A DNA stretch of 64,000 nucleotides from an uncultured Alphaproteobacteria bacterium (GTDB taxonomy: Bacteria; Pseudomonadota; Alphaproteobacteria; Rs-D84): contig CAKQEW010000003.1 in the NCBI GenBank assembly GCA_934230415.1, positions 73,837 to 137,836 of the forward strand, read 5' to 3'. This document shows positions 32,142 through 45,926 of this stretch, piece after piece. The notes under the pieces were generated by a model that saw only the letters and a program-made list of their open reading frames with translations, had not been told where the DNA came from and ran no database searches. A program made the translations under genes and the position numbers. Numbering within the stretch: position 1 is the stretch's first letter; every line of letters starts with the position of its first letter.

Positions 32142-33755
32142 TTATTGTTCCTGGTTCACACTGTAATAATATTCCAGTTTATCGTGATCATAATCTTCTA
32201 TGCGGCCCGCGGGCAGTACCAACATACGTGTTATGCCGATTTGTTCAACGAATTCTGGATTGTGGCTGACCACTATAATTGTGCCGGTAAAATCGTGAAA
32301 ATTATCACCGATAATACGTTGGGTTTCGGGGTCCAGGTGATTTGTCGGTTCGTCCAGAATCAACATATTTGCACGCCGCAACAATATCTTGCATAACGCA
32401 ACACGTGCACGTTCACCGGGCGACAGAACAGATACAGGCTTAAAAACATCCATATCGTAAAACAAGAAATTACCCAGTACTGCACGCAATTGTTGGTCGG
32501 TATAATCAGGATGCGCAACATTTTCCAAAACGGTTTTTGATGTGTCCAGACCTTCCAGTTCCTGGGCATAATACGCGATGTCTGTTTTGGGGTTTATTTC
32601 AATTGTCCCGCGTTGTGGTGTTAATTGTCCCAGAATTAATTTCAGTAATGTTGATTTACCGGTTCCATTTTCACCGCATATTAAAAATCGTTCGCCACCG
32701 GTAATTGTAAACGACATATTACGATACAACAGTGGCGCCCCCGGATACCGGAACCATAATTCATTAACCATAATTGGATGGCGTGCACCATCACGCAGTG
32801 GCGTCAGGTTCATATTTAATTTTTTATATGTTACATCACGCACGGTACGGTTTTTCAGCACGCGTTCCAGTATCGCCGCGCGAACATTTCCCGCGCGCTT
32901 CATGGCGTGATTTGTCGGACTGGCGGCATTGGCACGTGCAACGAATTCAGACAGTTTTTGTATATGGCGTTCTTCGTCTTGTATCTTTTTTTCGCGTTGA
33001 CGTTTTAATTCGGCCAATTTTAATTTATACTCATCATAGTTTCCAGAAAATACGGTGATGTTTTTATTTACCTTGTCCACATACAGGATTTTATTCACAA
33101 CACTGTTTAAAAATTCTGCATCATGGCTGATTATTAATACAGTGCCACGATATTTTTTCAGGTAATTTGCAACCCAATCCTTGGTCATTGCGTCCAGGTG
33201 GTTTGTCGGTTCGTCCAACAGTACCACGCCTGCCAATGAATACAACAGACGTGCGAATGCAACCTTGGATTTCTGGCCGCCTGACAGGTCGCGCAATCGC
33301 ATATCCAGCATGGCGGCATCAATATGCATGTTTTCAATAATTTCCAGTAATGTGTTTTCGGCCGTATAATATTCATAATAATCCAGTTCTGATTGTACAC
33401 GGTCAATTTCGGATTGTGTGTATTCGTCATCTGGGGTTGCGGCAATTTGTTCATATAATTTGTGCAGTTCTTGTTCCAGTTTGGCAATCGGCCGCCCGGT
33501 TGTTAAAAAATCCCATACGGTGATTTCAGGATTTTGTAATTCAATCGTCTGGGGCAGGTAACCAATACGTGCGCCGTTCATATCAATGCGCCCGGCATCA
33601 GGCATAATTTGCCCCAACAATATTTTGAACAGTGTGGTTTTACCCGCGCCATTGACACCAACAATACCAACCTTGTCCCGCGGGGCCAGGTTGAATTCCG
33701 CGTTATTATAAACAACAGTTGTTCCAAACGATAAAGATAATCCAGATACATGCAT
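32142..33755 (-). CDS. ABC-F family ATP-binding cassette protein (translation factor-like, no TMD)
   Basis: Two ABC ATPase cassettes. Walker A GVNGAGKTTLFKIL and GENGTGKSTLLKLIL. LSGGQKSKVAFARLL and LSPGERARVALCKIL signatures. 537 aa, typical of EttA/YheS/Uup-like ABC-F proteins. Confidence 0.8.
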   Translation of the reverse strand: MHVSGLSLSFGTTVVYNNAEFNLAPRDKVGIVGVNGAGKTTLFKILLGQIMPDAGRIDMNGARIGYLPQTIELQNPEITVWDFLTTGRPIAKLEQELHKLYEQIAATPDDEYTQSEIDRVQSELDYYEYYTAENTLLEIIENMHIDAAMLDMRLRDLSGGQKSKVAFARLLYSLAGVVLLDEPTNHLDAMTKDWVANYLKKYRGTVLIISHDAEFLNSVVNKILYVDKVNKNITVFSGNYDEYKLKLAELKRQREKKIQDEERHIQKLSEFVARANAASPTNHAMKRAGNVRAAILERVLKNRTVRDVTYKKLNMNLTPLRDGARHPIMVNELWFRYPGAPLLYRNMSFTITGGERFLICGENGTGKSTLLKLILGQLTPQRGTIEINPKTDIAYYAQELEGLDTSKTVLENVAHPDYTDQQLRAVLGNFLFYDMDVFKPVSVLSPGERARVALCKILLRRANMLILDEPTNHLDPETQRIIGDNFHDFTGTIIVVSHNPEFVEQIGITRMLVLPAGRIEDYDHDKLEYYYSVNQEQ

Positions 33756-34435: not shown

Positions 34436-34666
34436 GTTTTCAATCCTGTGTTTTGCGTAAATATTAAAATATAAAAACAATATATCAAGCATAAATTAAA
34501 TACAAAAATCAATCACAGGTTGATTTTATACAAAAATACGCTTATAAAATAGAATAATTACAAAAAATCAACTATAACGCGAATTTGTATTGTATATACG
34601 GCGGTAAACATACAAATATTTTATATTTAATTTTATTTTTTTTTGCTGTTTGATTATATTAAAAAA

Positions 34667-34692
34667 ACACACCAATTGTGGTGTGTTTTTTA
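34667..34692. terminator. hairpin terminator abutting the left island boundary
   Basis: ACACACCAATTGTGGTGTGT perfect hairpin plus a T-run, with an A-run on the other side. Confidence 0.5.
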
Positions 34693-34698
34693 TTTAAC

Positions 34699-34735
34699 TG
34701 GTTGCGGAGTGTGGATTTGAACCACAGACCTTCAG
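34699..34735 (-). repeat. attL-type direct repeat: 37-bp duplicate of the 3' end of tRNA-fMet
   Basis: TGGTTGCGGAGTGTGGATTTGAACCACAGACCTTCAG is identical to 45650..45686, which is the 3' acceptor/T-arm of the intact tRNA-fMet on the minus strand. Similarity decays after about 45 nt. Confidence 0.8.
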
Positions 34736-34836
34736 TTAATGGGTTAGATATTTAATAATGTTTAATATTGTTTAATTTTTCTTGATTTTCTGCATATTAT
34801 GTCGCATAATAACTTTAACAAGATTTAATAAAAAAT

Positions 34837-34886
34837 GGTAGCAAAATGTGAAAATTTGTGATATTAGTAGCAAATAGGTAGTAAAA
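34837..34886 (+). repeat. GGTAGCAAA(T/A) arm-type repeats near the left island end
   Basis: GGTAGCAAAA (34837) and AGTAGCAAATAGGTAGTAAAA (34866). The same motif recurs at 45559..45588 near the right end. Confidence 0.45.
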
Positions 34887-34924
34887 CGAAAAAGATAACG
34901 GGTCAAATTTACAGGGGTAAAAAA

Positions 34925-35749
34925 ATGACAGATACGACACTGAAACTGTTCCAAGATACAAATATCAGAACCCAATGGGATGCGGATGCTGAAAAGTGGT
35001 ATTTTTCCATTATTGATGTTATTGCGGCATTGACCGGCACAGACAACCCAAGACGTTATTGGTCTGACTTAAAACGCAAGTTAATTCAGGAAGGTAGTGA
35101 GTTGTACGAAAAAATCGTACAACTGAAATTACAATCGTCCGATGGCAAGTTTTATAGTACTGATGTGGCGGACACAGAACAGTTGTTGCGTTTGATTCAA
35201 TCTGTGCCGTCTAAGAAAGCTGAACCCTTTAAGTTATGGTTGGCCAGTGTTGGTAGTGAAAGAATTGATGAAATATCAGACCCTGAAATCGCAATACAAC
35301 GTGCATTAAATTACTACCAGCGGTTGGGATATTCTGATGAATGGATTGCCCAGCGGTTGCGTTCTATTGAAATTCGTAAAGACCTGACTAATCAATGGGA
35401 CAGGTGTGGAATTAAACAGGGGTTGGAATATGCTTTGCTGACCGATGAAATTACACGTTCTTGGTCGGGGATGAAGACCAAAGAATATAAACAGCACAAA
35501 GGGTTAAAGAAAGAATCCCTGCGTGATAATATGACGAATGCCGAATTGGTTTTGAATATGTTGGCGGAATTGTCTGCAACCGAAATTGCAAAAAATGAAA
35601 AACCAATGGGATTGGCTGAAAATATGGCGGTAGCCAAGCGTGGTGGCAATGTCGCCCGTCAGGCACGGTTACAATTGGAACAAGAAACCGGTAAAAAGGT
35701 TGTGTCGGGTGCAAATTCAAAACTGTTAAAGCGTGTGGATAAAGAATAA
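34925..35749 (+). CDS. BRO-N domain protein (phage antirepressor/DinD-like)
   Basis: N-terminal LKLFQDTNIRTQWDADAEKWYFSIIDVIAALTG matches the Bro-N/KilA-N-like DNA-binding module. 274 aa. First gene inside the island. Confidence 0.55.
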   Translation: MTDTTLKLFQDTNIRTQWDADAEKWYFSIIDVIAALTGTDNPRRYWSDLKRKLIQEGSELYEKIVQLKLQSSDGKFYSTDVADTEQLLRLIQSVPSKKAEPFKLWLASVGSERIDEISDPEIAIQRALNYYQRLGYSDEWIAQRLRSIEIRKDLTNQWDRCGIKQGLEYALLTDEITRSWSGMKTKEYKQHKGLKKESLRDNMTNAELVLNMLAELSATEIAKNEKPMGLAENMAVAKRGGNVARQARLQLEQETGKKVVSGANSKLLKRVDKE

Positions 35750-36931
35750 ATGTCTTCAAGTCGTATCAATTTTACAGAAGGGGCGTTGAAAAACCTGAGT
35801 ATTCCCACATCGGGTCAGGCGGTGTATTATGACACAGGCAGCCATGATGGATTGTGTGTCATTGTGACCTATGGCGGGGCAAAGACTTATTATGCATATA
35901 TGAAATTTCAAGGCACACCAAAGCGTGTAAAAATCGGGCGTGTGGGGCAGATTAAACTGTGTGATGCCCGTCGGCAGGCACATAGCTTAAAAGAAATGGC
36001 GACCAATGGCACAGACCCCAGTGTTCAAAGACAGGAAAATCTGAATGATATGACGTTGCGCCAGTTTTATGAAAATATCTATAAACCCGAATATTCCACA
36101 ATCTATAAAAAGCAACATTCGGTTGTGAATGATGACAGTGTGTTCAAGCACAGGTTGAATCAATTCCATAATCGCAAGTTGTTAAGCATTAAGGCGGACG
36201 AGATTGAACACCTGCATGCGGAAACTTGTAAAACACACAGTCCATATACGGCCAATCGGGTGTTGTCGCTGATTAAGCATATGTATGTGATTGCAGTGAA
36301 GAAAGGTCTGATGGGGGGGCGTGGCAATCCAGCCGGCGGAATTCGGAAATTTACAGAAAAAAGTCGGGACAGATTCTTGAACGGCGATGAATTAAAGCGG
36401 TTTTGGACGGCCTTGGCGGAATGCAAAAATGATGTATTCAGGAACTATGTGATGATATCACTGATGACAGGGATGCGGCGGAATAATGTGCTGACTATGC
36501 GCTGGGAACATGTGGATTTTACGTCGGGGTTGATATATGTGCCTGATTCCAAGGGTGGGCAACCGTTGCAGATTCCAATAGTGAATCAATTGCGTGAATT
36601 ATTATTAAAAATCAACCAAGGCAAGAAAAACGGTTGGGTGTTGCCAAGTAATAAAAGTGCCAGTGGGCATCTGGAAGACCCGAAGCGTCCGTGGCAATCG
36701 TTGTTGCGGGTGGCAAACATTACAGATATGCGGATTCATGACCTGCGCCGCACAATGGGTTCATGGCAGGCGATATCAGGTGCCAGTTTGCCAGTTATTG
36801 GTAAATCACTTGGCCACAAATCCACCAGCGCAACACAGGTTTATAGCCGACTGACCGTTGACCCAATTCGTGATTCAATGCAAACCGCCACAGATAAAAT
36901 GCTGGGGTTTGTGGATTCCGACTCAAAATAA
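35750..36931 (+). CDS. int: tyrosine site-specific integrase (P4-type, N-terminal arm-binding DUF4102-like domain)
   Basis: 393 aa. N-terminal L.IP.SGQAVYYDTGSHDGLCVIVTYGGAKTYY (P4-integrase arm-binding fold). C-terminal catalytic R...HDLRRT...Y segment (MRIHDLRRTMGSW, ...ATQVYSR). Confidence 0.85.
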   Translation: MSSSRINFTEGALKNLSIPTSGQAVYYDTGSHDGLCVIVTYGGAKTYYAYMKFQGTPKRVKIGRVGQIKLCDARRQAHSLKEMATNGTDPSVQRQENLNDMTLRQFYENIYKPEYSTIYKKQHSVVNDDSVFKHRLNQFHNRKLLSIKADEIEHLHAETCKTHSPYTANRVLSLIKHMYVIAVKKGLMGGRGNPAGGIRKFTEKSRDRFLNGDELKRFWTALAECKNDVFRNYVMISLMTGMRRNNVLTMRWEHVDFTSGLIYVPDSKGGQPLQIPIVNQLRELLLKINQGKKNGWVLPSNKSASGHLEDPKRPWQSLLRVANITDMRIHDLRRTMGSWQAISGASLPVIGKSLGHKSTSATQVYSRLTVDPIRDSMQTATDKMLGFVDSDSK

Positions 36932-37073
36932 GTGTTTTTGTTGAAAAAAATACATTTTGTACGAATCGGGAATTTTAATATTTGGTTGTGAAACAGTTGG
37001 TTTTCTGCGGTTTTAAATAAGTTCTTGCTTTAATTTTGTAAAATCTATATGAATCGTGAATATTAGAAAAAAA

Positions 37074-37153
37074 GACCCGTATAAATTCACACGGGTCGGG
37101 TTCTAAGCAATGTAAAAGTGCTTAGCTTGTGGTGCTTTCACCTTACATTGCTT
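37074..37153 (+). promoter_or_regulatory. hairpin plus 11-bp inverted repeat upstream of the CD-NTase gene; candidate operator/promoter region
   Basis: GACCCGT...ACGGGTC hairpin (37074-37097). Perfect IR AAGCAATGTAA (37105) / TTACATTGCTT (37143). Downstream TTGACG-16-TATAAA (37177-37204) and AGGAG RBS before the ATG at 37220. Confidence 0.3.
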
Positions 37154-37219
37154 TATGGGGCCTTGTCAAATGTTTTTTGACGGGGGATGTTTTTGCCGTA
37201 TAAATGTAAGGAGAATAAA

Positions 37220-38074
37220 ATGGCATATACAGAAGAACAATTAATTGCTTTTACAAAGCCGCTTTCGGATACTGAAGATCAAAAGGCACAAAATTCCATC
37301 AACATGGTTCAATCGGCTATTGATAATTATGATTGGAATGTTGTTGGGTTGCAAAAACCGGAGGTGCGCTTAAAGGGGTCGTATCATAATGATACTAATG
37401 TAAAATTAGATAGCGATGTTGATACTTATGTATTGTTTACGGGGTATACATATAAGGTTTGTACGAATAGTCAATCTATCAGTCCGTATCATATGGGGAC
37501 AGGACAACCCTGGGGGTATTTCAAGGATCGTTTACATGAGGCTTTAAAAAACAAATTTGGCACGGATGTTCATCGTGGAAATAAGTCGTTTAAGATAAAA
37601 GAAAATTCATACAAACACCAAACTGATGTTGTGTGTGCATTTAGTGCGATTGATGATCGAGGTGAAAAAAATAATTGTGGTATTTGTCTGTTTCCTGATG
37701 ACGACACCGGGGTTATAATTAATTATCCTGAACAGGATACCGAAAGGGGGAATGAGAAAAATTTTTGGACAGATCATTATTACAAGAAGATTGTTCGTAT
37801 TTTTAAGGCGATAAAGAATGATGTTGGGTTAAGTACCCCGTCATATTTGATTGAATGTTTGATTAGTAATGTTGATAATCATTTAATTGCTGATAATTCC
37901 AAACGCTACAAGGATAAATTGACTGAAATAATAGATTTTTTACTTCGGTTCTTGTATGTGTCACCTGGGAGTTTTTATGAGGTTAATCAAGTTAAACCTT
38001 TGTTTCACGAAAAACAAAAATGGACGGTGGACGAGGCAGTTGGTTTTTTGCACGTGGTTAAAGAGGTATTATAA
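37220..38074 (+). CDS. CD-NTase/SMODS-like nucleotidyltransferase (putative cyclic oligonucleotide synthase)
   Basis: Pol-beta-type NTase signature GSYHNDTNVKLDSDVD (GS-x11-DVD) is near-identical in spacing to the DncV GS...SDVD motif. A further acidic cluster (AIDD, DDD) follows, then a helical C-terminal domain. 284 aa. Strong AGGAG RBS. Start chosen at the internal Met of the tracked ORF. Confidence 0.55.
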   Translation: MAYTEEQLIAFTKPLSDTEDQKAQNSINMVQSAIDNYDWNVVGLQKPEVRLKGSYHNDTNVKLDSDVDTYVLFTGYTYKVCTNSQSISPYHMGTGQPWGYFKDRLHEALKNKFGTDVHRGNKSFKIKENSYKHQTDVVCAFSAIDDRGEKNNCGICLFPDDDTGVIINYPEQDTERGNEKNFWTDHYYKKIVRIFKAIKNDVGLSTPSYLIECLISNVDNHLIADNSKRYKDKLTEIIDFLLRFLYVSPGSFYEVNQVKPLFHEKQKWTVDEAVGFLHVVKEVL

Positions 38075-38643
38075 TGATAACAAAATATGATACTTATTTT
38101 ATTGGAGGGATTGCGATAGTTGCGTTTTTTCTGGTGGATTTTATTTCGCCAAAAAATACAATTTTGCAAAATTTAACCGAGTGTATAGGGTGGACATCAA
38201 CCGTATGTTTGGCATCGTACGCTTTGTTTAATAAATATTTGTGGAGAAAATGGCCGATATGTAAGTTTATAAATCGTCCATATGTTGGTGGAATATGGTT
38301 TGGAAATATTCATTATAATTTTAATGGTGTTGCGGGCAAAAAAAGGGTAACAGTGCAAATTCAGCAAGATTTTTATAATATAAAAATTTGTTTAAAAACA
38401 GACATAAATTTAAGTAAAAGTTGTACAGCGGAATATTGTGCCGAAGAATCAAAAATATTTTACGTGTATAAAACGGATCCACATTCAAGAATGAAGGATA
38501 TAAACCCAGTTCAGTATGGGGCTGCACAGATAGTTATAGACCAGAATAATCTTAATAAAATTCGTATTGAGTATTGGACAGATCGTCGAACAAAAGGCTA
38601 TATGGATTTAAAGCGTGTATTGAACAATAAACGGCGTTTTTAG
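38074..38643 (+). CDS. small 2-TM protein with C-terminal beta-rich domain (candidate Cap15/SLATT-like membrane effector)
   Basis: Translationally coupled (TAATG overlap) to the NTase gene. Two N-terminal hydrophobic helices (IGGIAIVAFFLVDFI, CIGWTSTVCLASYALF) and a roughly 120-aa soluble domain. No catalytic motif. Confidence 0.45.
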   Translation: MITKYDTYFIGGIAIVAFFLVDFISPKNTILQNLTECIGWTSTVCLASYALFNKYLWRKWPICKFINRPYVGGIWFGNIHYNFNGVAGKKRVTVQIQQDFYNIKICLKTDINLSKSCTAEYCAEESKIFYVYKTDPHSRMKDINPVQYGAAQIVIDQNNLNKIRIEYWTDRRTKGYMDLKRVLNNKRRF

Positions 38644-38737
38644 AATTTTTTTGCATTTTTTTGGGGTTCTTGTTATTATGGGCATTGAATCCGATGGAAA
38701 TTGGGTTCGGGGCCGTGATAAGCCTAGTTTTAATCCG

Positions 38738-38827
38738 GTGCAGTTTTGCATCGTTATTTGATGTGGTGCAAACTGCACTGTTATCAACCCTGACTCGTAT
38801 GTCGGGGGGCTGTCTGTTATATAACAG
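38738..38827 (+). promoter_or_regulatory. structured intergenic region: 12-bp-stem hairpin plus perfect 14-bp palindrome upstream of mod
   Basis: GTGCAGTTTTGCA...TGCAAACTGCAC (38738-38778) and CTGTTATATAACAG (38814-38827). Lies between the 2TM gene and the Type III mod gene. Confidence 0.3.
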
Positions 38828-38961
38828 GGGAAACCCGAAAGCAGCAGGAATCCAGTGATTAAAACTGATTTTATCAACTCCCCGACCGTCAATTTCAAGA
38901 TTGGCGGTTGTTTTTTTAGGCCGTGTTTCCATTTGGGTTCCGAAACAAAAAGGAACGAGAT

Positions 38962-40857
38962 ATGTGGGATGGGTTGCAGGCGGTACGCAAGGAAATACAA
39001 GAATCTGTTAATACAATTCATGATAACGAAGAAATTCATGATGGGTTTCAATTACGTTTTGTGGGTAAGAGTTATGCCAAATTTGTGACCGGGTTGCCCA
39101 GCGAGACGGTCTTGGTTCCGGATAATGATTGGAATAATCAAGAAAACAATAAAGATAGCCAGAATATATTTATTACCGGTGATAATTTAGATGCGTTAAA
39201 ACATCTGGTGAATGCGTATTCCGGTGCGATTAAGATGATATATATTGACCCACCATATAATACTGGGGCGGATGGGTTTGTTTACAAGGACAGTTTTAAA
39301 TTTTCAGATGATGACCTGAAACAGAAATTAGGGTTTTCGGATACAGAGTTGGCACGTTTGCGTGCGCTGGATGGCAAGTGTTCGCATTCGGCATGGTTGA
39401 CCTTTATGCTGCCACGATTGATATTGGCAAAACGCCTGTTGTCAGACGACGGGGTGATGTTTATCAGTATTGACGATAACGAGCAGGCAAATTTGAAAAT
39501 GATTTGTGATGAGGTGTTTGGTGAGAGTAATTTTCATGTTTGTTTTCCTAGGGTAACAAAGAAAGGGGGAAAATCTTCTGATACGACAGCAAAAAATCAT
39601 GATTATGTGTTAATGTATAAAAAAACATCTTATGCAGATATTGTAGGGGTTGAACACAATGATGACTCTTATTGTAACAAAGATGAATTTTTTGATGAGA
39701 GGGGATATTATAAGTTAAATCAAACTTTAGATTATGATTCATTGGGCTGGGTTAGGTCTTTGGATTATCCGATAGAGATAGAAGGTGAAGTTTTTTATGC
39801 TGGTGGCAGCAAAGAAGAATATAAAAAGAGACAAGAGGGACAACACGGACGTGCGGACTGGGGATGGAGATGGAGTGTAGATTTATTTGATTTTGGTGTC
39901 AAGAATGGATTTATTGAAGTTAAGCGTGGTGGAGTTAGGCCACGTATTTATACAAAAACATATCAAAATGTTAAAATTGAGAAAATTAATAACAGTTATA
40001 AAATTGTCAAAATTGATAGAACTAAACCTTTGTCTACTCTTGAGTTTACAGATAATAAATATTCAAATGATTCTGCTACAAAAGTGATAGCTGAATTGTT
40101 GGGGAAAGGGGTTTTTGAGTATACAAAAGCTCCAGAATTAATATCGTCTTTGATGAAGCTTGTTGCAGGTAATGATTTTACAATCCTTGATTTCTTTGCA
40201 GGGTCGGCGACTACGGCGCAAGCGGTTATGCAGTTGAACAAGGATGACGGTGGTAATCGTAAATATATCATGGTGCAATTGAATGAAGCGGTGAAACCGG
40301 GTAGCGAGGCGGAAAATCAGGGATTTAAGACCATTGATGAAATTTCACGTAAACGTATTAAACTGGCGGCGGAACAAATTGGTGATACGTCTGGGTTTAA
40401 ACACTATAAGTTAGCCAAAGTAACCGATGATTTAATATTAGATAAAATTGATGAATTTGACCCCACAAAGCCCAATCTGTTGTCGGATGATATGGTTAGT
40501 CCGTTTTCAGGTGATGCGCTGGGGACGGGGTTAAATGCGTCTGGATTGGATACTTTATTAACCACATGGATGGTTGATGATGGATATCCGATAAATACCA
40601 AGGTTGAAGAATTTAAATTTGGAAATTATGTTGCATATTCACCGGTGGGGTCACGACGCTTGTATCTGATTTCAGATGGTTTGGATTCAAATGCCACACA
40701 AGATTTGTTGAATAAAATCGGGTGTAATGAAATCAGTGTTCAAACAATCATTATTTATAATCATTCGTTTAATTTTACGATGCTGACCGAGTTAAAAAAT
40801 AACCTGAAGCATGTGTTGGATGATGATAAAAAGATTGAAATTATAGAGAGATTTTAA
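38962..40857 (+). CDS. mod: Type III restriction-modification methyltransferase (Mod, N6-adenine, beta class)
   Basis: DPPYN catalytic motif (IYIDPPYNTGADGFVYKD). SAM-binding FxGxG-like motif (LDFFAGSATTAQAV). Central variable target-recognition region. ATG 38962 with AAGGAA RBS; the tracked ORF starts at an upstream GTG. Confidence 0.8.
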   Translation: MWDGLQAVRKEIQESVNTIHDNEEIHDGFQLRFVGKSYAKFVTGLPSETVLVPDNDWNNQENNKDSQNIFITGDNLDALKHLVNAYSGAIKMIYIDPPYNTGADGFVYKDSFKFSDDDLKQKLGFSDTELARLRALDGKCSHSAWLTFMLPRLILAKRLLSDDGVMFISIDDNEQANLKMICDEVFGESNFHVCFPRVTKKGGKSSDTTAKNHDYVLMYKKTSYADIVGVEHNDDSYCNKDEFFDERGYYKLNQTLDYDSLGWVRSLDYPIEIEGEVFYAGGSKEEYKKRQEGQHGRADWGWRWSVDLFDFGVKNGFIEVKRGGVRPRIYTKTYQNVKIEKINNSYKIVKIDRTKPLSTLEFTDNKYSNDSATKVIAELLGKGVFEYTKAPELISSLMKLVAGNDFTILDFFAGSATTAQAVMQLNKDDGGNRKYIMVQLNEAVKPGSEAENQGFKTIDEISRKRIKLAAEQIGDTSGFKHYKLAKVTDDLILDKIDEFDPTKPNLLSDDMVSPFSGDALGTGLNASGLDTLLTTWMVDDGYPINTKVEEFKFGNYVAYSPVGSRRLYLISDGLDSNATQDLLNKIGCNEISVQTIIIYNHSFNFTMLTELKNNLKHVLDDDKKIEIIERF

Positions 40858-40860
40858 CCG

Positions 40861-43647
40861 ATGAAAAAGCATTTGGAACAATTACCACATCAAGAAGATG
40901 CGATTAAAGCGATAATGGATGCGATGCAAGGATGTCGTGATATTGATAATAATACCGATGTTTATGCAAATCCAAACATTAGTGTAAAGTCAGGGATTGA
41001 TGTGAAAATGGAAACAGGGACGGGTAAGACGTATGTTTATACCCGTATGATGTTCGAGATGTTTCAAAAATACGGAATTAGTAAATTTATTATATTTGTT
41101 CCTTCATTGGCGATTAAAGAAGGCACTAAGTCGTTTATAATGGCTGATTACAGTCGGCAACATTTTTCAGAATTATATGAGAATGTGCATATTGATTTGG
41201 ATGTTATTAATGCAGGTGATTTTAATACTAAAAGGGGTCGCAAAACAATACCGTCTGCGTTAATGGATTTCTTGGAAGGGACACGGAACGACCATAAAAG
41301 CATAAAATGTTTATTGTTGAATGATGCGATGTTGACCAGTAAGTCAATGACCCGTGATGACTATGACCAAACGTTGATAAATTCTTGTTCGTGTCCGATT
41401 GAATCAATTAAGATGACCAGACCGGTGGTTATTATTGATGAACCACACAGGTTTAATAAAAATGGCAAGGCATGGACAGCAATACAGCAATTAAAACCAC
41501 AGTTGATTGTCCGTTTTGGGGCGACTTTCCCGATGATTCAAATAGGTACAGGCAGAAACAAGGTTATAAAGAAGGATTATGATAATCTGGTGTATGACCT
41601 GAATGCGATACAGGCGTTTAATGAAAATCTTGTTAAGGGAATTAATGTTTTGTTTCCAGAGATAGATGCCGTAGATGCAGCATATAAATACAAGGTAAAA
41701 TCAGTTAGTGATAAAAAACTGGTTTTGAATGATGGACGGGCAGACTATGAATTGAAGATAGGTGATAAGTTGCCGGCTGATTTTGAAGGCGGATTGAATT
41801 ATGAAGGTAAAAAAGTGCTGTCAAATGACCTTGAATTGTCAGAAGGGATGGTGTTGATTCCAAAATTGTTTTCGTGTTCATATCAAGAATTATTATTAAA
41901 TCAGGCCATTAATGCACACTTTATGGCGGAACGTGAAAACTGGATACGTGAAAATTCAGGGGTGAATCCAGCTAGGATTAAAACACTTTCGTTGTTCTTT
42001 ATTGATGATATCAAATCGTATCGGTCGGATGATGGGTGGTTAAAATTGACTTTTGAACGCCTGTTAAGAAAAAAGTTAACTGAATTAATAGAAAAAGAAA
42101 CGGTTGCAGAATATAAACAATTTTTACAGGAAAGCTTGAATCATATACCAGAGACACACGGTGGATATTTTGCCGAAGATACAGGTAAAACAGGTGATGA
42201 AGCGATACAGGCAGAAGTGGATGATATCTTGCGTAGTGGGCAAAAATTGTTGCAGTTTAAGGATGCGTCAGGTAATTGGATATTACGCCGATTTTTGTTT
42301 TCAAAGTGGACATTGCGCGAAGGGTGGGATAACACAAATGTGTTCACGATTACCAAACTTAGAACCAGCGGCAGTGAAAATAGTAAAATACAAGAGGTTG
42401 GGCGTGGACTGCGTTTGCCGGTTGATGAAACTGGGAAAAGATTGTCTGATGACGATTTTAGATTGAATTTTATCGTGGATTGGTCTGAAAAGGAATTTGC
42501 AGAAAAACTGCGTTCAGAAATCAATGGTGATGGTGGTGTTGTGGATTCAATGAAGATAACGGATGTTATATTAAATGCACTAGTATCACGAAAATATGCG
42601 GATAATACGGCTGTTGCAAAGGCTAAATTATTGATAGACGGTATTATTGACACTAATGATGCGATATTAAAGGTTGAAGAGCTGTTAAAACTGTTGCCGG
42701 AACAATTCCAATTAAAGAAAAATGCGATTATTACTAATCACTTGGGAAAGAGTGTCGTAAAGCTGAGAAAGAATAATTGGATGCCGCTAAAAGAACTGTG
42801 GGGACGTGTTGTTCGCCGGTATATGATTAAGTATGATAATATTTCGCTCGATGATTTGTTAGAAATGGCAAAAGGGGCAGTGGAAGACAGTTTTACACCG
42901 GCTTTTGGTCGTGTTAAATGTTATATATTGGAAGAACAGGATGGGCAAATGATTGTAAAGTCAACAATCGTTGATACCAGAATTCCATTGGATAAGATAT
43001 CGTATGGCTTGTTTATTCAAAAGCTTTCAAAGCGGACACAGGTTGCGGTAAATGTTTGGCATCAGGCTATGTGTGAAAAGTATCCAAATGGTCTAAAATC
43101 AGATGATTTTAATGTTCAGAGCTTAGAAAATATCATAAATAAATTTTTGAAATCTTTTGCGGATGTGTTTGCACAACGGTTTGAATACAGTTCGTTGGAA
43201 TTTACTGCAAATACCAGTTTGATAAAAAATGGCGAGTTTGTAGATGAAGTTCCACAGGGTGCGCTGGGGACACATTTGGCGGAAGATGCCTGTGTTGAAA
43301 GTTGTTATATGTATGACAAAAAGTGTTATGACACAGAGCCAGAACACGAGATATTAAAATTACAGCCACATGGGGTTGTGACTGCATTTGGTAAGTTGCC
43401 TAGACGTTCTATTAAGGTGCCGTTGTATACGGGTGGGACAGCATCGCCGGACTTTGTGTATGCCATAGAAAGCGATAATGGTGTGAAATTGAACCTGCTG
43501 GTTGAGGTTAAGGCGGATAATGAGCGGCGTAGCGATTCAATTATCACCAAGAGCCAGCAAGAGTTCTTTAGGCAAATAAAAGGTGTTGAATGGCGCAAGG
43601 TTGTCAAGGCTGATGATTTGCGAAGTGCGATAGAAAAATTGGTTTAG
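40861..43647 (+). CDS. res: Type III restriction enzyme Res subunit (SF2 helicase plus PD-(D/E)xK nuclease)
   Basis: 928 aa. Helicase motif I (METGTGKTYV), DEAH-like motif II (VVIIDEPHRF), motif VI region, C-terminal endonuclease segment. Immediately follows mod with a 3-nt gap. Confidence 0.8.
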   Translation: MKKHLEQLPHQEDAIKAIMDAMQGCRDIDNNTDVYANPNISVKSGIDVKMETGTGKTYVYTRMMFEMFQKYGISKFIIFVPSLAIKEGTKSFIMADYSRQHFSELYENVHIDLDVINAGDFNTKRGRKTIPSALMDFLEGTRNDHKSIKCLLLNDAMLTSKSMTRDDYDQTLINSCSCPIESIKMTRPVVIIDEPHRFNKNGKAWTAIQQLKPQLIVRFGATFPMIQIGTGRNKVIKKDYDNLVYDLNAIQAFNENLVKGINVLFPEIDAVDAAYKYKVKSVSDKKLVLNDGRADYELKIGDKLPADFEGGLNYEGKKVLSNDLELSEGMVLIPKLFSCSYQELLLNQAINAHFMAERENWIRENSGVNPARIKTLSLFFIDDIKSYRSDDGWLKLTFERLLRKKLTELIEKETVAEYKQFLQESLNHIPETHGGYFAEDTGKTGDEAIQAEVDDILRSGQKLLQFKDASGNWILRRFLFSKWTLREGWDNTNVFTITKLRTSGSENSKIQEVGRGLRLPVDETGKRLSDDDFRLNFIVDWSEKEFAEKLRSEINGDGGVVDSMKITDVILNALVSRKYADNTAVAKAKLLIDGIIDTNDAILKVEELLKLLPEQFQLKKNAIITNHLGKSVVKLRKNNWMPLKELWGRVVRRYMIKYDNISLDDLLEMAKGAVEDSFTPAFGRVKCYILEEQDGQMIVKSTIVDTRIPLDKISYGLFIQKLSKRTQVAVNVWHQAMCEKYPNGLKSDDFNVQSLENIINKFLKSFADVFAQRFEYSSLEFTANTSLIKNGEFVDEVPQGALGTHLAEDACVESCYMYDKKCYDTEPEHEILKLQPHGVVTAFGKLPRRSIKVPLYTGGTASPDFVYAIESDNGVKLNLLVEVKADNERRSDSIITKSQQEFFRQIKGVEWRKVVKADDLRSAIEKLV

Positions 43648-44303
43648 TCCGAATATACATCTGTGGCGGTTTCGCGTGATTGCATATTTGGATTAAATCC
43701 GTATTTGTTTCCATGCCCGTTGCGTTCTTCGGCGATTGTTTTCTTGATATCTGCTGTTTCTATGGCGAGACTAATTGACCGCCATTTGCGAACAAGTCGT
43801 TCAATACAATGTGTTTTGCGAATTTGTAAGAAATAGTTGATGTCATAAACGGTTTTTCGTTCACGCCAGTGTGTAATTTTATTATGCTTTCGTTGTGGTG
43901 GCAGGTTACTGTTTTGAAGCTCAAGAATCTTTTGGTCGCAAATTTCCATTTGCTCTAAAAACCATTGTTCGGTTTTGTAACATCGTTGAATTTTATTTTC
44001 GTATCTGTCCAGTAATTCAAACGCATCACGTTGTTTTATTTTTCCATCTGCACGTATACGAATGTCATCTGCTTCTAGTTCTTGCCATTCTTTCTTGTGT
44101 TTGGCGTCGTTTAGTGCGGTTTGTATGAATTTTTGTTCGTATTGCTGTTGAAAGCGTTTCAGAAAATCGGACTGGGTCTGTGATGCGGTTTCAAACAATT
44201 TTCCAATGTCTGTGTAGGCAAATTCGTCTGCAGGTTGAAAAGAGTTATTTTGCATAGATTTGGCATATTCTTGGTAAATGTCGTGATTTTGTTGCAGTGT
44301 CAT
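43644..44303 (-). CDS. hypothetical protein (219 aa), island-encoded
   Basis: Convergent with res, and the two stop codons overlap by 4 nt. Q/E/K-rich, no recognisable motif. Confidence 0.4.
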   Translation of the reverse strand: MTLQQNHDIYQEYAKSMQNNSFQPADEFAYTDIGKLFETASQTQSDFLKRFQQQYEQKFIQTALNDAKHKKEWQELEADDIRIRADGKIKQRDAFELLDRYENKIQRCYKTEQWFLEQMEICDQKILELQNSNLPPQRKHNKITHWRERKTVYDINYFLQIRKTHCIERLVRKWRSISLAIETADIKKTIAEERNGHGNKYGFNPNMQSRETATDVYSD

Positions 44304-44434
44304 TTTTTGTATCCTTTCCGGGGCGCACGGGTTGATAAATGATTTAATAAAAAATGATATATGTGTGTTGTTTGGGTATGTAAAATATTGACATGGTTAT
44401 GCCTTTTGTTTTCGAGTGATTATGAGTGTTCTGT

Positions 44435-44629
44435 TTATGGGTTAGGTATGTGCAGATTATTTTCAATCCATGTGTCTAAATCAGCTTTGCGATATCTTAT
44501 GCGGTTACCCCAGCGGACAAATGGAATGGTATTTTTACCATAGTGTCGCCAACAATTAAGTGTTCCGACAGTTGTTCCAAGGTATTTAGCGGCCTGTGCC
44601 TGTGTCATTAAAATAGTGTCTGTGTTCAT
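44435..44629 (-). CDS. alpA: AlpA-family phage/island excisionase-transcriptional regulator (MerR-like wHTH)
   Basis: 64 aa. ILMTQAQAAKYLGTTVGTLNCWRHYGKNTIPFVRWGNRIRYRKADLDTWIENN matches the AlpA/Xis pattern (L....E....G.S..T....R..G.FP.P...G.R...W...D...W). Confidence 0.6.
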   Translation of the reverse strand: MNTDTILMTQAQAAKYLGTTVGTLNCWRHYGKNTIPFVRWGNRIRYRKADLDTWIENNLHIPNP

Positions 44630-44743
44630 GTCTTTCCGTTTCTTTTAAATCTGATTAAATCTTGCTGCGTGTTGGTAATAAAAACAAGTGCAAGCATAGC
44701 TTGCACAAATTGTTATCTTGATGAATTTACATGGTATTTTTTA

Positions 44744-45484
44744 TTAAATTTTGTTTAATGTTTTGAGTGCAGATAATACGTGTTCTGAATCGTTTTCTGA
44801 TAGAAAGCAGTGTTCTTGGATGTATAAAATCTGTTCATCGTGTGGCTTGTTTTTTATAATTTCATAATGTTTATCTTTTAATATTTTTGAAATGGCTTTG
44901 TTTTGTCTGTTTTGTGGTGTGTGAATTATGTGTCCGCCGGCAATGTATTTTGCTTGTTTTTGTATTATTTGGTTAATTTCGGTTATGTCGGCTATAATGC
45001 TACCAAACACGAAAAAGTCGTTGTTGTGAATTGATTTTATAAGTTCTGGTAGCAGGGCAAAAATACATCCCGCCAGTAATGTTTCAGGCATCGCTTTAAA
45101 ATGCTTTTTAAATGTGCGTCGTAATGACGTATAAGATGATTTGTTTATTTGCCAGATGTATTCGGGTGTTTTTATTTGATTGTTTTTGCTTTTGTTGTTC
45201 TTGTAGAACCAGTGGGTGATAGCAATGCGGGTGTAATAATATATTGTGTGTTGTGGGATGTCGTTTGGTTCAATTTTCGGTAGTGTTGAAATTAACAAAA
45301 GACAGGACTTCAGTAGTGTATTTATGTGTGTAAGTTCGTCAGGGGTAAGGTCTGAATTGAATGTATATGCTTTTTGAAAGATTGTGCGGTATGCGTTTAA
45401 CACAGGGGTTTGTATGGTGTGTAATGCTGGATATTTAATAAATATTGTGCTTACATTATTAATGTTAAAATTTTCGTATTTCAT
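44744..45484 (-). CDS. hypothetical protein with AraC-like HTH-resembling segment
   Basis: Start placed at MKYENF (AAGGAT RBS). Segment SSYTSLRRTFKKHFKAMPETLLAGCIFALL resembles the AraC-family signature (S.S.L.R.FKK..G.SP..Y......). Very AT-rich. Confidence 0.35.
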   Translation of the reverse strand: MKYENFNINNVSTIFIKYPALHTIQTPVLNAYRTIFQKAYTFNSDLTPDELTHINTLLKSCLLLISTLPKIEPNDIPQHTIYYYTRIAITHWFYKNNKSKNNQIKTPEYIWQINKSSYTSLRRTFKKHFKAMPETLLAGCIFALLPELIKSIHNNDFFVFGSIIADITEINQIIQKQAKYIAGGHIIHTPQNRQNKAISKILKDKHYEIIKNKPHDEQILYIQEHCFLSENDSEHVLSALKTLNKI

Positions 45485-45558
45485 ACGTATCCTTTTTGCG
45501 AAATATACTAGGTATTGCCGGGATTGCAAGGTTTTTGCTTAATAACAATTAGTGTTGT

Positions 45559-45588
45559 TGGTAGCAAATAGGTAGCAAAAAGGTAAAA
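45559..45588 (+). repeat. GGTAGCAAA arm-type repeats near the right island end
   Basis: GGTAGCAAATAGGTAGCAAAAAGGTAAAAG. Same motif as 34837..34886. Confidence 0.45.
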
Positions 45589-45626
45589 GCGGGGTGGTTT
45601 TTAGGGTGTAAAAAAGCATTAAAAAA

Positions 45627-45649
45627 GCCCAGAAAACTGGGCGGAATCT
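45627..45649 (-). terminator. terminator downstream of tRNA-fMet
   Basis: On the minus strand, GCCCAGTTTTCTGGGC hairpin followed by TTTTTT immediately 3' of the tRNA. Confidence 0.5.
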
Positions 45650-45726
<77 letters not shown>

Positions 45727-45926
45727 ATGAACAGGGGCTATTATATATCAATGTATCGGTATGTCAAATAAATTTTATGTTTTTTATGATTTTGTGCCGG
45801 CGGGTACGGTGTTTGGTATTGGGGCGGTGGTTTTTGGGTGGTGTGTGGCGGTATTTATGCCTAATGCAGTGTTGAAATATGTTTTTTTTGTTGCTATTAT
45901 CCACTTGATTTATCCAAGGGTGTATA

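Follow-up and report, generated by a model that had tools for sequence, protein, structure and literature searches.

A cdnE-cap15 operon, predicted to encode a type I CBASS, on a tRNA-Met integrase island of an uncultured gut alphaproteobacterium

The operon of CdnE03 and Cap15 described in staphylococci is a type I-B antiphage signaling system based on cyclic oligonucleotides (CBASS) that provides defense and is activated by a phage RNA, cabRNA; structured phage RNA binds a basic surface of the staphylococcal CdnE03 (PMC10686824). According to the summary of Duncan-Lowey 2021 given in PMC10419184, Cap15 senses uracil-containing cyclic dinucleotides (CDNs) and oligomerizes in the membrane. Within the CdnE enzymes, an (R/Q)xW motif determines pyrimidine specificity, and three of the enzymes studied, EfCdnE, LpCdnE, and ClCdnE, come from Cap15 operons (PMC10442399). 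We analyzed a stretch of 64,000 nucleotides (here called the window) from an uncultured alphaproteobacterium of the Rs-D84 lineage (assembly GCA_934230415.1, contig CAKQEW010000003.1, positions 73,837 to 137,836), which carries a two-gene operon that we name cdnE-cap15. An earlier note, made from the DNA letters alone, had proposed that these two genes form a minimal CBASS-like module of a cGAS/DncV-like nucleotidyltransferase (CD-NTase) and an effector with two transmembrane (2-TM) helices, a proposal borne out by the sequence itself, by profile and structure matches, and by the conserved order of the genes. We consider it highly probable that cdnE-cap15 is a CBASS operon of type I (I-B) directed against phages. 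It shares an integrase island of ∼11 kb, inserted in a tRNA-Met gene, with a type III restriction-modification (R-M) system.

The CdnE cyclase, its Cap15 partner, and their pairing

The cdnE gene (positions 37220 to 38074, plus strand) encodes a 284-aa clade-E CD-NTase, the CBASS cyclase, as indicated by profile, PDB, and fold matches. Residues 53 to 68 of the protein read GSYHNDTNVKLDSDVD, in which G53 and S54 are followed by 11 residues and then by D66-V67-D68. This is the GS-x11-DVD signature that had been picked out in the earlier note, and given the PADLOC and PDB E values, its occurrence in the translated sequence is far beyond chance. The protein matched the PADLOC CBASS cyclase models from end to end, with PDLC00801 the best at 1.2e-67. 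A phmmer search of the PDB returned five significant matches, all of them clade-E CD-NTases: EfCdnE (7x4c, 1.1e-33), LpCdnE (1.2e-32), ClCdnE (2.5e-29), the Elizabethkingia enzyme EmCdnE (7.9e-27), and the Rhodothermus enzyme RmCdnE (3.1e-21). An AlphaFold2 model built with 20 homologues had a predicted local distance difference test score (pLDDT) of 91, and Foldseek placed LpCdnE at the top of its matches to this model (TM score, 0.87); the first 14 matches were CdnE structures, and the top 50 were all CD-NTases or cGAS. The catalytic residues G53, S54, D66, D68, and D136 are intact and are invariant in 84 distinct relatives. Sequence and predicted structure thus identify the 284-aa protein as a CD-NTase of clade E whose GS...DxD...D active site is intact. 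The precomputed database annotation of the cyclase is PF26305 (CD_NTase_C), and the generic Pfam family NTP_transf_2 scored 15.9 bits, below its cutoff of 21. An aminoglycoside nucleotidyltransferase or an AbiEii/MNT toxin, the identities that had been named as refuting a signaling enzyme, were both rejected, as no profile matched and neither appeared among the top 50 structural matches.

We placed the start of cdnE at 37220 because homologues begin with MAYT or MYT and because a Shine-Dalgarno-like AAGGAG, read from the DNA at 37208 to 37213 (plus strand), lies 6 nt before this ATG. A longer open reading frame (ORF) of 295 aa is also open from 37187, but we rejected this start since homologues begin at the second ATG, where the ribosome-binding site sits.

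The cap15 gene (38074 to 38643, plus strand) encodes a 189-aa effector of the S-2TMbeta/Cap15 type, an assignment that draws on Pfam, PADLOC, a family profile, and the predicted fold. Pfam PF18153 (Cap15_CD_rec) matched residues 68 to 181 at 61.3 bits against a curated cutoff of 31.2, and the PADLOC models for 2TM CBASS effectors matched at 3.2e-33. Searching the PDB with the single sequence gave only chance matches to antibody chains (E > 0.1); a profile of 61 family sequences found the Yersinia aleksiciae Cap15 structure 7N34 at 2.6e-19. Similarly, a word-indexed homologue search with Cap15 returned nothing beyond its own 90% cluster, and at least 755 clusters of relatives came out when 1.84 billion representatives were searched exhaustively; the closest of them was about 45% identical. 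The AlphaFold2 model (pLDDT, 91.5) has helices at residues 4 to 24 and 30 to 54 and an eight-stranded beta domain at 73 to 181, which bears out the earlier description of two N-terminal helices and a beta-rich C-terminal domain. The best Foldseek match to the model was again 7N34 (TMt, 0.82; root mean square deviation, 2.9 Å), and lipocalin-like barrels came next. Helix 1 is strongly hydrophobic, with a 19-residue Kyte-Doolittle mean of 2.0. We predict that the barrel lies in the cytoplasm because five Lys/Arg residues directly follow helix 2, as the positive-inside rule would have it.

Based on these matches and on the model, the 189-aa protein is a member of the Cap15 family, in which two helices are predicted to form a hairpin in the membrane and the beta barrel to serve as a nucleotide receptor on the cytoplasmic side. 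It had been suggested that the effector was of either the Cap15 or the SLATT type. The first part of this suggestion stood, through PF18153 and 7N34, and the second fell, as no SLATT family was found in Pfam at E ≤ 1. The further suggestion that the protein might be a new effector variant did not hold up either, since it passes the Pfam Cap15_CD_rec cutoff, matches a Cap15 crystal structure by both profile and fold, and belongs to a family of at least 755 clusters. Nor is it a housekeeping membrane protein, the second outcome that had been named as a refutation.

The two genes lie on the same strand, and their TAA stop (38072 to 38074) and ATG start (38074 to 38076) share one base, giving the TAATG overlap already described in the earlier note. 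Within the 3′ end of cdnE, seven bases before the cap15 ATG, we read a ribosome-binding site, AAGAGG (38061 to 38066, plus strand). From the overlap and this site, it is plausible that cdnE and cap15 are translationally coupled.

We counted how often relatives of the cyclase are paired with a Cap15 gene among the matches listed in a scan of a genome collection (at least 80 loci), in which the best relative was 37% identical. In 79 of 80 loci from unrelated genomes, the cyclase was directly followed by a Cap15-family ORF; the exceptions in this count were one Cap15 ORF upstream and one locus without any. The loci came from Firmicutes, Proteobacteria, Actinobacteria, Saccharibacteria, Bacteroidetes, a Methanococcoides archaeon, and others. 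Cap15 also follows the cyclase in the three closest relatives examined (L094, L096, and L097; 50 to 60% identity), and more than 90 contigs retain full-length ORFs. Relatives on plasmids were at most 33% identical, and the Vibrio navarrensis plasmid match had no Panoptes system alongside its CBASS. A phage collection had no record with a gene related to the cyclase. When the remaining eight ORFs of the island (seven proteins and one antisense ORF) were scanned with Pfam and PADLOC, no Cap2/Cap3 (E1/E2-JAB), HORMA, or TRIP13 genes were found, as the earlier note had said of accessory genes, and we therefore assigned the CBASS to type I, which PMC10686824 terms I-B and which has been studied experimentally in Yersinia and Staphylococcus.

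Sites resembling promoters occurred near the operon no more often than in shuffled sequence, and for this reason, we do not claim a promoter. The region just upstream of cdnE (37074 to 37185) holds three hairpins and folds modestly better than shuffles (z = -2.6). The first is a terminator-like stem on the minus strand (37074 to 37097), the second is a perfect 11-bp inverted repeat, AAGCAATGTAA...TTACATTGCTT (about 37107 to 37152), and the third is a terminator-like stem (37161 to 37185), which ends about 22 nt short of the ribosome-binding site.

Downstream, a 279-nt intergenic spacer (38644 to 38922, plus strand) separates cap15 from the R-M methyltransferase gene mod. It is highly structured as RNA (minimum free energy, -102 kcal/mol; z = -5.8 versus shuffled sequence), with a terminator-like hairpin at its end (38883 to 38910) followed by a T run. 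The spacer is 99.6% identical across L001 to L008, metagenome contigs that carry copies of the island, and the flanking genes are 97 to 98% identical between island copies. Positions 38800 to 38895 gave a subthreshold match to the Rfam family sRNA-Xcc1 (33.8 bits; gathering score, 53), a small RNA family known from integrons and genomic islands. An element of this kind was not found in the related loci L094, L096, L097, and L099. A 126-aa antisense ORF that some annotations call in the spacer had no family match. From its sequence features, the spacer may hold the terminator of the CBASS operon and the leader of mod.

Nucleotide pocket and proposed mechanism

We read the specificity residues of the cyclase from a HMMER alignment of CdnE onto EfCdnE, using the rules of PMC10442399. 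In that work, a lid 1 Asn, a Glu partner, and (R/Q)xW together form a signature by which uracil is chosen at the acceptor site and purines are kept from the donor site. All three elements of this cyclic-dipyrimidine signature are present in the window CdnE: the lid 1 residue is Asn168 (Asn174 in EfCdnE), the salt-bridge or hydrogen bond partner is Glu254 (Glu267), and the (R/Q)xW motif of lid 3 is Gln266-Lys267-Trp268 (R279-K280-W281). Since Asn168, Glu254, and Q266-K-W268 are as in the cyclic-dipyrimidine CdnEs, we predict a uracil or pyrimidine cyclic dinucleotide, cUU- or cUA-like, as the product, with about equal confidence and doubt. Cap15 reportedly prefers dinucleotides that contain uracil, and a uracil-type product would agree with this.

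Two other residues of the pocket depart from the characterized pattern. The acceptor-base contact, Gln51 in EfCdnE and Gln in 65 of the 84 relatives, is Lys52 in the window CdnE, and the lid 2 residue, His179 in EfCdnE, is Asp173. Because Lys52 stands where Gln is usual and Asp173 where His is usual, the pyrimidine product is the least certain step of our interpretation. Among the 84 relatives, the combination of Lys52 and Asp173 is confined to the window's own subfamily, which is found mostly in metagenome assemblies. This pocket makes the subfamily a reasonable subject for studies of product specificity in pyrimidine CDN synthesis. It could be that the subfamily makes an undescribed pyrimidine CDN or linkage isomer, read by a co-diverged Cap15 (its nearest relatives are at most 45% identical), and/or that the stable, near-invariant 279-nt element regulates the module, but we regard this as unlikely.

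By analogy with the Y. aleksiciae Cap15 and the Staphylococcus schleiferi CdnE03-Cap15 operon, CdnE would stay off until phage infection. A phage-derived cue may then switch it on, for example, a structured RNA as for the staphylococcal enzyme. Activated CdnE would make a cyclic dinucleotide that binds the Cap15 barrel, upon which Cap15 would form higher-order assemblies in the inner membrane and break membrane integrity. The infected cell would die ahead of phage release, as in abortive infection.

The sign of this regulation cannot be read from sequence, and regulation runs the other way in OptE, an S-2TMbeta protein closely related to Cap15 (PMC12657218, PMC12657230). In an inverse, Panoptes-like scheme, a constitutive nucleotide would hold the effector inactive, and its removal by a phage sponge or nuclease would free the effector to kill the cell; several CdnE enzymes have been assayed in vitro for product formation (PMC10442399), which could be taken in its favor. 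However, the Panoptes synthase is mCpol, a Cas10-palm enzyme, and the enzyme here is a clade-E CD-NTase, so inverse logic is very unlikely in this operon. Moreover, both of the CdnE-Cap15 or CD-NTase-Cap15 operons tested signal positively (PMC10686824 and, as represented in papers that cite it, Duncan-Lowey 2021).

The mobile island and remaining alternatives

The operon lies in an ∼11-kb island at a tRNA-Met gene. The tRNA-Met (CAT anticodon; 45650 to 45726, minus strand) was found by ARAGORN and by the Rfam tRNA model (62 bits). Its 3′ half (45650 to 45692) forms the right repeat of the island, and a 43-nt direct repeat of this half (34699 to 34741, no strand assigned; 41 of 43 positions identical) forms the left boundary. 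The right repeat marks the integration site, and in L001, L003, and L005 the island is bounded by the same pair of repeats. The G+C content is 0.33 to 0.39 in the island and about 0.45 outside it. Many metagenome contigs carry this island at the identical site, with sample names that include Hadza and Nepal human gut metagenomes. In a comparison of positions 34661 to 45790 of the window with L001, L003, and L005, identity was 94 to 96% over the island but only 70 to 77% in the flanking core genes, which means that the island was recently transferred between diverged gut bacteria, into the same tRNA-Met site.

The first gene of the island encodes a 274-aa Bro-N domain protein (34925 to 35749, plus strand; Pfam Bro-N, 36.9 bits), which matches the PADLOC single-gene defense candidate PDC-S13 almost end to end (4.5e-128) and phrog_15286 (3e-122). 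Directly after it comes a 393-aa tyrosine integrase (35750 to 36931, plus strand), with Pfam matches to Phage_integrase (84 bits) and Arm-DNA-bind_3. The operon and the spacer are followed by the type III R-M system that the earlier note had correctly placed beside the pair in a defense island. Its methyltransferase, Mod (38923 to 40857, plus strand), matched Pfam N6_N4_Mtase and T3RM_EcoP15I_C and PADLOC MTase_III (3.7e-162); the true start is probably slightly downstream of the GTG. The restriction enzyme, Res (40861 to 43647, plus strand), matched Pfam ResIII and RE_endonuc and PADLOC REase_III (4.8e-271). The central part of Mod (39534 to 40179) does not align between island copies, as would be expected of a variable target recognition domain. 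On the minus strand lie a 219-aa protein (43644 to 44303), a 64-aa AlpA/excisionase-like HTH_17 protein (44435 to 44629; Pfam HTH_17, 44 bits; phrog_66, excisionase and transcriptional regulator), and a 261-aa protein (44744 to 45529). The 219-aa and 261-aa proteins had no match in Pfam, PADLOC, or PHROGs and may be island replication or regulation genes.

The island is a mosaic: the region of the 261-aa gene differs in L001 and L003, and L005 is without the HTH_17 segment. Beside the island, the gene for an ABC-F ATPase (32142 to 33755, minus strand) is inverted relative to L001, L003, and L005. Between that gene and the island, these three contigs carry Lipocalin_3, and the window carries ORFs of 116 aa and 94 aa. 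The DNA uptake sequence words of Neisseriaceae and the uptake signal sequence words of Pasteurellaceae were absent from the window.

In the three closest relatives of the operon that were examined, the R-M contexts are an MmeI-like type IIG system, a type III system with Bro-N, HTH_17, and integrase genes, and a type I hsd operon. In L097, the order is hsdS, hsdM, cdnE, cap15, hsdS, an uncharacterized gene, and hsdR, and a Bro-N gene is also present with the related island in L096. Close relatives of the cyclase thus recur beside or inside R-M operons. This setting, together with the travel of the pair on an island moved between diverged hosts, would also suit a pair that serves the island more than its host, either by addicting the cell to the island or stabilizing it, or by attacking mobile elements that compete with it, and not as phage defense. 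We give this explanation little credence, on a par with the inverse scheme above: the genes show no arrangement of the antitoxin kind, two-gene operons homologous to this one give naive hosts phage resistance (PMC10686824), and mobile islands with R-M systems are the usual setting of defense systems. The island is a compact mobile defense package of an integrase, a CBASS, and a type III R-M system that recently crossed between gut bacteria at tRNA-Met.

Several points weigh against the interpretation of cdnE-cap15 as a type I CBASS anti-phage operon. Phage protection, the product, the trigger, and the phage range are all predictions, and the product prediction may be wrong, given Lys52 and a lid 2 residue that is Asp and not His or Asn. 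Pfam SMODS (PF18144) scored 19.0 bits on CdnE, below its gathering threshold of 26.5, and the NCBIfam CBASS cyclase models scored it far under their cutoffs. Helix 2 of Cap15 is moderately hydrophobic (1.14), which makes the evidence for a second membrane span weaker. Finally, the cap15 alleles that we compared differ by seven nonsynonymous changes and two synonymous changes, for a ratio of nonsynonymous to synonymous polymorphism (pN/pS) of ∼0.87. Purifying selection on cap15 is not demonstrated, because the changes between two alleles are too few to interpret. They fall mainly in the loop between the helices and in the C-terminal tail, and Phe76 is unique to the window allele, with Ser in 13 other alleles. 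For cdnE, the window allele and the commonest other island allele differ by 15 synonymous and 7 nonsynonymous changes (pN/pS, 0.11).

That the pair is a decaying remnant, with intact ORFs and lost function, would suit the high nonsynonymous fraction in cap15 and the private Phe76 but is the least probable of the alternatives, since all catalytic and family-conserved residues are kept, cdnE has the low pN/pS given above, full-length ORFs persist in the many contigs already counted, and both models fold with high confidence.

The CBASS assignment has its main value as annotation. Neither protein has an informative name in the source databases, and homologues on annotated plasmids go only by "nucleotidyltransferase" or "hypothetical protein"; the two proteins can now be named for cdnE and cap15 of a type I CBASS.

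Comparison with described systems

The Panoptes operons OptS-OptE, or mCpol-2TMbeta (PMC12657218, PMC12657230), share with the window operon an effector of the S-2TMbeta superfamily and a two-gene arrangement. Their synthase is a minimal Cas10-like polymerase and their signaling is inhibitory, whereas the window synthase is a CD-NTase of the Pol-beta fold.

Closer to the window effector, the Y. aleksiciae Cap15 (7N34/7N35) has the same two N-terminal helices and eight-strand beta-barrel receptor, at about 20 to 23% sequence identity. For the cyclase, EfCdnE, LpCdnE, and ClCdnE (7x4c, 7x4f, and 7x4a) are the best matches both in sequence (1e-33 to 2.5e-29, ∼30 to 33% identity) and in structure (TM scores of 0.86 to 0.87). 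These enzymes and the window CdnE have in common the catalytic Asp triad, the lid 1 Asn, the Glu at window position 254, a lid 3 of the Q-K-W kind, and the pairing with Cap15. They part in the acceptor pocket, where EfCdnE has Gln51 and the window enzyme has Lys52, and in lid 2, which is His in EfCdnE and ClCdnE, Asn in LpCdnE, and Asp173 in the window CdnE.

The S. schleiferi operon of Ssc-CdnE03 and Cap15 (Banh et al. 2023, PMC10686824) shares the two-gene order, in which the gene for a 2-TM effector of the Cap15 family comes after that for a CD-NTase of clade E. Like the window operon, this type I-B CBASS is without accessory genes and is flanked by an R-M system, but that system is type I in S. 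schleiferi and type III in the window, whose host is a Gram-negative gut bacterium. Ssc-CdnE03 makes cyclic GMP-AMP (cGAMP), whereas the window CdnE, compared here with the published description of the staphylococcal enzyme, has the Asn and (R/Q)xW pyrimidine signature. The cdnE-cap15 operon is a further example of a well-characterized class and not a new kind.

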